This document shows positions 1,353-1,490 of a stretch of DNA of 64,000 bases, piece after piece (position 1 is the stretch's first letter; the number at the start of each line of letters is the position of its first letter). Made by a program: the position numbers and the translations under genes. Under the pieces are notes generated by a model, which saw nothing but the letters and a program-made list of their open reading frames with translations, searched no databases and was not told the DNA's origin. Origin of the DNA: Escherichia coli (GTDB lineage Bacteria > Pseudomonadota > Gammaproteobacteria > Enterobacterales > Enterobacteriaceae); the NCBI RefSeq assembly GCF_003334405.1, contig NZ_QOWM01000004.1; one strand, written 5' to 3'.

Positions 1353-1436
1353 ATGTTGTTCCTGTTACCGTGGTGTAAATAATCAAATTCAGGGTAATTA
1401 ATGGCCCCGGAGCGGGTTTGCGCCCCTCACCCTAAT

Positions 1437-1457
1437 CCTCTCCCCATAGGGGAGAGG
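1437..1457 (-). repeat. GC-rich hairpin CCTCTCCCC-ATA-GGGGAGAGG within a GC-rich glnH-glnP intergenic element (candidate intra-operon attenuator or mRNA stabiliser)
   Basis: Inverted repeat read directly; embedded in GC-rich stretch 1400-1460 between two co-oriented operon genes. Confidence 0.4.
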
Positions 1458-1490
1458 GAACTGCCAGTGCGTTTTACAGGTGTAGCGTTA

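Follow-up and report, generated by a model that had tools for sequence, protein, structure and literature searches.

The window, by which we mean the whole 64,000-nt stretch of Escherichia coli DNA that was analysed, starts with the glnHPQ operon, which is transcribed from right to left. From its left end it holds a partial glnQ, glnP, glnH and then dps. The upstream cistron, glnH (1491-2237, minus strand), encodes the periplasmic glutamine-binding protein, and the downstream cistron, glnP (693-1352, minus strand), encodes the permease. Both open reading frames are 100% identical to their K-12 MG1655 counterparts, GlnH and GlnP. They are separated by a spacer of 138 nt (1353-1490), within which the K-12 RefSeq record has no annotation and an Rfam cmscan of positions 1-5000 at E <= 1 found no match. 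A weak Rfam match to ctRNA_p42d lies elsewhere, at 2568-2603 on the minus strand, and its 26.9 bits fall short of the gathering score, 50. The match is at the site of the dps terminator hairpin, which has a strong Term-seq 3' end (K-12 848340), and is almost certainly just a terminator stem-loop.

The spacer contains an inverted repeat. Its arms, at 1437-1445 (CCTCTCCCC) and 1449-1457 (GGGGAGAGG), are 9 nt each, 100% complementary and separated by a 3-nt loop. When up to three mismatches were allowed, this inverted-repeat pattern occurred once in the 64-kb window, compared with 0.01 occurrences expected from shuffled sequence. GC content is 65% over 1400-1459 and 35-45% in the flanks. The whole spacer, folded as the mRNA strand, has a free energy of -45.2 kcal/mol (z = -2.5). 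The 49-nt element folded alone is no outlier against composition-matched shuffles (z = -1.29), because shuffled sequence made up of the same C-run and G-run folds well too. The 51-nt 3'-terminal RNA, which includes the perfect 9-bp stem, folds with -20 kcal/mol. A stable hairpin is thereby placed on the transcribed strand, 3' of glnH, as is the case for REP-type stabilisers. The first-pass annotation had called a strong hairpin in a GC-rich block between glnH and glnP, and the perfect stem, the GC content and the spacer z score bear this out.

Relationship to the boxC repeat family

The family of dispersed repeats called boxC has reportedly been treated by Bergler (1992), Bachellier (1999) and Hoyne and Maher (2000, 2002). 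It was later renamed PIT, for potential intrastrand triplex, and then TM_ECO (Holder et al. 2015, PMC4666352). Judged by its sequence, the glnH-glnP hairpin is a slightly degenerate copy of boxC/PIT/TM_ECO, with the G-rich strand in the mRNA. To place it, nine canonical K-12 boxC copies were fetched by their published NC_000913.3 coordinates and aligned with it using MAFFT. Across the core this alignment has 31 invariant columns, and 32/36 core positions of the glnH-glnP copy agree with the type-A consensus. It has the same three-block layout as type A (CCCTCNCCCC, a 3-nt loop, GGGGAGAGGG, TTA and GGGTGAGGGG). It also has an intergenic site and part of the GCGCAC...GTC 5' flank of the family. 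GCACnnnCAGT is common to the window copy and the canonical copies, and other E. coli alleles have the canonical GCGCAC. A blastn search with an 81-nt query returned matches in all 5426 complete E. coli genomes, with 11 places per genome at the median and 22 at most. The glnH-glnP copy therefore shares the multi-copy, dispersed and intergenic character of the family. The palindromic element described by the first-pass annotation is thus real as a palindrome. It had gone unrecognised, however, as a member of the boxC/PIT/TM_ECO family and is not specific to the operon.

Several bases depart from the type-A consensus. Block 1 has T for G, a loop base is changed, block 2 ends in A for G, and GTT replaces GTC directly before block 1. 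The T for G change removes the mismatch that is usual in the stem, so that the stem is perfect. The published TM_ECO pattern is CCCTCNCCC-N3-6-GGGNGAGGG-N3-GGGNGAGGG (PMC4666352), and the window copy misses this strict form by one base, the final G of block 2. Because the G to A change breaks the search pattern, the glnH-glnP copy is found neither in the published table of 23 K-12 copies nor in its supplement (PMC4666352). It also differs from the canonical copies in its mismatch-free stem, and its downstream flank is not found in the other copies aligned. The block-2 change and the variants of block 3 would be expected to weaken a DNA triplex.

A canonical boxC copy was also observed in the pstA-pstB spacer (K-12 3908495-3908530), within a second ABC-transporter operon, pstSCAB-phoU. 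That copy is oriented oppositely, with the C-rich strand in the mRNA.

On the mRNA (minus) strand, where all parts of the spacer are given here, the element reads CCCTCTCCCC-TAT-GGGGAGAGGA-TTA-GGGTGAGGGG. The boxC core spans 1423-1458, and its 5' flank reaches about 1471. This flank (1459-1471) is CGCACTGGCAGTT in the window and GCGCACTGGCAGTT in the other eight E. coli alleles examined, and it resembles the GCGCAC...GTC flank of the canonical copies. Block 1 (CCCTCTCCCC, 1449-1458) was delimited by the inverted repeat and by the alignment with the nine K-12 copies; within it, 1449-1457 make up the 5' arm of the hairpin in the RNA. The loop at 1446-1448, defined by the inverted repeat and by allele alignments, is UAU here and UCU or GCC in other E. 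coli. Block 2 (GGGGAGAGGA, 1436-1445) follows from the inverted repeat and the boxC alignment. Its positions 1437-1445 form the 3' arm, and its last base is the A that stands where the family has G. The TTA linker (1433-1435) is the second loop of type A, and coordinate mapping places a published Term-seq 3' end at its position 1433. Block 3 (GGGTGAGGGG, 1423-1432), placed by the boxC alignment, lies past this mapped RNA end. In the DNA triplex formed in vitro, block 3 of boxC is the third strand (PMC4666352).

Downstream of block 3 lies a neighbouring GC-rich stretch (1403-1422; GCGCAAACCCGCTCCGGGGCC in the mRNA), which folds into a weak second hairpin. Alignment to other boxC copies does not extend beyond block 3 into this stretch, and a 96-nt query covering 1395-1490 matched a median of one place per E. 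coli genome. The first-pass annotation had drawn the element at 1400-1460. That interval takes in the hairpin and block 3, together with the GC-rich stretch that is outside boxC, and leaves off the 5' flank of the repeat. An A/U-rich linker follows (AUUAAUUACCCUGAAUUUGAUUAUUUA, 1376-1402), recognised from its sequence, and it may be an entry zone for an endonuclease. The conserved block CACCACGGTAACAGGAAC (1358-1375), identified as a pattern across spacers, comprises the glnP Shine-Dalgarno sequence and the region just upstream of it. According to text descriptions in PMC9731577 and bioRxiv 10.1101/2022.04.01.486790, the small RNA GlnZ pairs just upstream of the glnP Shine-Dalgarno sequence.

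The RNA 3' end at position 1433

Term-seq data for E. coli (Adams et al. 2021, PMC7815308, Suppl. file 1) contain a dominant 3' end, classed as 'orphan', at MG1655 847200(-). It was recorded in all three growth conditions, with scores of 30331.8, 130459 and 42295.2. The convention of the sequence strings in the table (-50 to +10) was checked against the K-12 sequence before mapping. Position 847200(-) corresponds to window position 1433, 4 nt 3' of the stem. The mapped RNA terminus reads ...CCCUCUCCCCUAUGGGGAGAGGAUUA, so that 4 unpaired nt follow the stem. This published dataset, re-mapped, thus places a discrete in vivo 3' end a few nucleotides past the stem, as is found at REP-type stabilisers. 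The end was already public but unexplained there, and the boxC hairpin probably accounts for it.

Further boxC-type hairpins behave in the same way. Dominant Term-seq 3' ends were found at five of them, at 3781065(+), 3959467(-), 164636(+), 4231270(-) and 632098(+), with unpaired tails of 4, 4, 5, 2 and 8 nt, respectively. Both orientations of the repeat are represented. These ends suggest that defining RNA 3' ends is a general behaviour of the family. The hairpins at 632098 and 4231270 were observed to be likewise missing from the published list of 23 copies.

In E. coli, steady-state 3' ends are known to lie at stable stem-loops that lack a U-tract, and these protect the RNA against PNPase and RNase II (Dar and Sorek 2018, PMC6061677). 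Such ends arise when PNPase and RNase II trim RNA after termination or cleavage further downstream (PMC6061677). The glnH-glnP hairpin is likewise stable, has no U-tract and has a 3' end a few nucleotides downstream. The stem-loops of Dar and Sorek protect the ends of Rho-terminated transcripts, whereas the boxC hairpin here sits inside an operon, and Suppl. file 2 of Adams et al. (PMC7815308) gives no Rho-termination region for glnHPQ. A search for literature linking boxC to exonucleases or mRNA, within incomplete literature coverage, found only unrelated usages of the name 'boxC'. The first-pass annotation had proposed a partial terminator or a processing barrier. The published RNA 3' end at 1433 directly supports the central prediction of this proposal, and the barrier half fits the U-less stem-loops (PMC6061677). 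The terminator half is disfavoured by the missing T-run, by the lack of a consensus call on the minus strand and by reporter assays that are reported to have found no terminator activity in these elements.

An RNA triplex or G-quadruplex was considered as the working structure and rejected, because the mapped 3' end leaves block 3 out of the stable RNA. Purine-motif triplexes do not form in RNA, according to Holder et al. (PMC4666352).

A separate Term-seq 3' end was observed in the glnH leader, in one condition, at window position 2290 (K-12 848057, minus strand), 53 nt upstream of the start codon. Its position is the end of GGCACGAUUUUUUCAU, inside the sigma-54-like motif TGGCAC-N5-TTTCAT. 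Premature termination could account for it, as could a roadblock to transcripts coming from an upstream promoter.

Variation within E. coli and across Enterobacterales

The spacer and its flanks are present at 95-100% identity in 5401/5426 complete E. coli genomes, and the 96-nt element region in 5396/5426. Base-by-base reading covered nine full alleles chosen to span the identity ranking from top to bottom. Neither stem arm varies among them, and the G to A change in block 2 is present in all nine. The loop is TAT, TCT or GCC, and these multi-base differences might have arisen by gene conversion between boxC copies. Block 3 occurs as GGGTGAGGGG, as GGGTGAAGGG and as GGGTGA-GGG, and five sites vary in the 5' flank. 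A downstream run of 58 nt is just as invariant as the stem. Conservation of the stem above its surroundings is not significant, with p about 0.1 by a hand estimate from the nine alleles.

Two strains with disrupted loci were observed. In strain B2.3 (NZ_CM185023.1) only part of the left hairpin arm is left, with the sequence beginning at TCCCCGCCGGGG next to a copy of the IS21-family element ISEc10, beyond which a pap/ireA island takes the place of glnH. The rearrangement is IS-associated, and its breakpoint lies within the boxC hairpin. In strain FORC_042 (NZ_CP025318.1) a copy of IS26 lies between glnH and glnQ, and glnP and the spacer are missing. From its gene content, this strain should be without a functional glutamine permease.

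A scan with GlnP identified 80 loci in Enterobacterales, from which 78 spacers were extracted (79 counting the window). The 77 distinct variable parts that were folded come from related species and are not independent observations. The motif CACGG[T/A]...AGGA, a looser form of CACCACGGTAACAGGAAC, lies within the last 34 nt of the spacer in 74/79 spacers including the window. The segment between the glnH stop codon and this conserved 3' block is non-homologous across genera. It is nevertheless structured, with z < -2 in 71/77 distinct variable parts and a median z of -3.33.

The type of structure differs among lineages. REP-like hairpins hold this position in E. albertii, E. whittamii, Citrobacter, Salmonella and, within Enterobacter, the Enterobacter cloacae complex. 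Kosakonia, Buttiauxella, Cedecea, many Enterobacter species and others have a short CAGGGGCG...CGCCCCTG hairpin followed by a T-run, which is terminator-like. Serratia has a related hairpin of different sequence, and the Klebsiella oxytoca group and Raoultella have long hairpins. Among the spacers compared, boxC was found in the window only. Two long spacers (L031 and L079) look ERIC-like, by guess.

The spacer of 'E. coli' SCPM-O-B-8794 (L002:1407-1500) has a REP-like hairpin where the window has boxC; the flanks, TAACGCT ... TTTGATTATTTACACC, are identical. None of the 5426 complete E. coli genomes has this allele, and therefore the strain probably belongs to a separate Escherichia lineage. 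On the branch that gave rise to E. coli proper, boxC thus seems to have displaced a REP-like element.

A proposed role for the hairpin and its alternatives

On balance we favour, with moderate confidence, a reading in which the boxC hairpin acts as a REP-like stabiliser, that is, as a barrier to exonucleases that yields a glnH-only RNA ending at 1433. Upon transcription of the operon, blocks 1 and 2 would pair into the perfect 9-bp G+C hairpin. RNA downstream would then be removed by an endonuclease acting in the A/U-rich linker (1376-1402), for which RNase E is a candidate. Alternatively, it might be lost through GlnZ-induced cleavage or decay at the ribosome-binding region of glnP, or through Rho termination in poorly translated glnP. 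Exonucleases working in the 3'-5' direction would trim back and stall at the hairpin, leaving a stable glnH-only RNA whose end lies 4 nt past the stem. Read-through transcripts would be the carriers of glnPQ. In the manner of the REP elements of malE-malF and hisJ-hisQ, the hairpin would favour GlnH over GlnPQ.

REP/BIME sequences are stabilisers at malE-malF and hisJ-hisQ (Newbury et al. 1987, as cited in PMC6061677). Both they and the glnH-glnP element are palindromic repeats with dispersed copies, and both directly follow the gene for the periplasmic binding protein in an ABC transporter operon. Both also combine a stable RNA hairpin with an RNA 3' end immediately downstream. The boxC family differs from REP in being a separate repeat family that shares no sequence similarity with it, and stabilisation of the upstream cistron by the boxC copy, with its dependence on PNPase and RNase II, is putative. 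In Salmonella, glnP and glnQ fell more than 4-fold after a pulse of GlnZ; the genes listed do not include glnH (PMC9731577). The Salmonella spacer has REP-like hairpins, and this result is consistent with discoordinate decay of the kind proposed here, by analogy.

Three other explanations were weighed. The glnH-glnP copy may be a neutral, selfish or hitch-hiking repeat, with a 3' end that is real and caused by stalling of exonucleases, but without a selected role in the stoichiometry of glnHPQ; the spacer would simply tolerate the insertion of palindromic repeats. Copies of the family are scattered through intergenic DNA irrespective of what the flanking genes do or how they are oriented (PMC4666352), the spacers of relatives hold many repeat types, including the REP-like ones and the two long ones guessed to be ERIC-like, and the stem shows no significant excess of conservation over its surroundings, all of which agree with neutrality. 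We nonetheless consider a neutral repeat unlikely, since 77/77 distinct spacers are structured directly after glnH, 71 of them beyond the z threshold of -2, and since the boxC allele has become fixed, with about 99.5% of complete E. coli genomes carrying it. Many relatives, moreover, have a compact hairpin and T-run and no mobile repeat at this position, which looks like maintenance beyond mere tolerance. Still less probable is a weak intrinsic terminator, at which a fraction of RNA polymerases would stop just past the hairpin and attenuate glnPQ. Intrinsic partial terminators between cistrons resemble the element in their G+C-rich hairpin, intercistronic site and nearby 3' end, and here the 9-bp stem is G+C-rich and the RNA ends close behind it. 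The hairpin with T-run that many relatives have at the same position also resembles a true partial terminator. In the window, however, the stem is followed by AUUAGGGUGAGGGG and the U-tract is missing, and the unpaired tail is 4 nt long compared with the usual 7-8 nt U stretch (PMC6061677). A scan for consensus terminators and promoters gave no call for the element on the minus (sense) strand. The nearest terminator-like calls were on the plus strand at 1495-1513, antisense to glnH.

Reporter assays by Hoyne and Maher, as cited in PMC4666352, also argue against a terminator, as PIT/boxC elements had no terminator activity in them. The same source cites these authors for the finding that PIT elements have no promoter activity and no effect on RNA polymerase. 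Such negatives fit a barrier, yet they show that the functional record of the family is negative so far. Less probable than either of these alternatives is a role at the DNA level, in which an intrastrand triplex on single-stranded DNA would lead to polymerase pausing, recombination and instability, and the RNA end would be irrelevant. In vitro, TM_ECO oligonucleotides adopt stable triplexes, and comparison of E. coli strains shows more rearrangement at TM loci than at control loci (PMC4666352), and the ISEc10-associated rearrangement of strain B2.3 breaks an arm of the glnH-glnP hairpin. Yet the end of block 2 carries G to A in all alleles examined, and block 3 is damaged by a G to A change or a 1-nt deletion in 4/9 full alleles, in all of which the duplex stem is perfect. 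Footprinting in vivo, as cited in PMC4666352, did not support a stable triplex, and the locus is intact in 5396-5401 of the 5426 genomes, with no notable instability.

We return to the REP-like barrier and to what it would mean. That boxC is generally a REP-like, exonuclease-blocking 3'-end hairpin, with glnHPQ as a site of lineage-specific turnover of such elements, is a wider proposal that we put forward tentatively, as a possibility less secure than the barrier at glnHPQ itself. If it is true, boxC took over, in the E. coli lineage, the role that REP-like or hairpin-plus-U elements have at the same position in relatives. The turnover would have occurred under a conserved need to uncouple glnH mRNA from glnPQ, possibly together with GlnZ-triggered decay of glnPQ. 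A different hairpin element in each lineage at the same position would then be a neat case of functional turnover, and the known principles of operon polarity and REP-type stabilisation would stand unchanged.

For the family, the TM_ECO census gains a copy that had been missed. boxC/TM_ECO has had no accepted function after 30 years, and the RNA 3' ends offer a testable role at the RNA level for repeats that have been studied mostly as DNA triplexes, with negative functional results. For glnHPQ, the barrier suggests how the message for the binding protein may be kept while the permease and ATPase part is degraded, for example after pairing with GlnZ.
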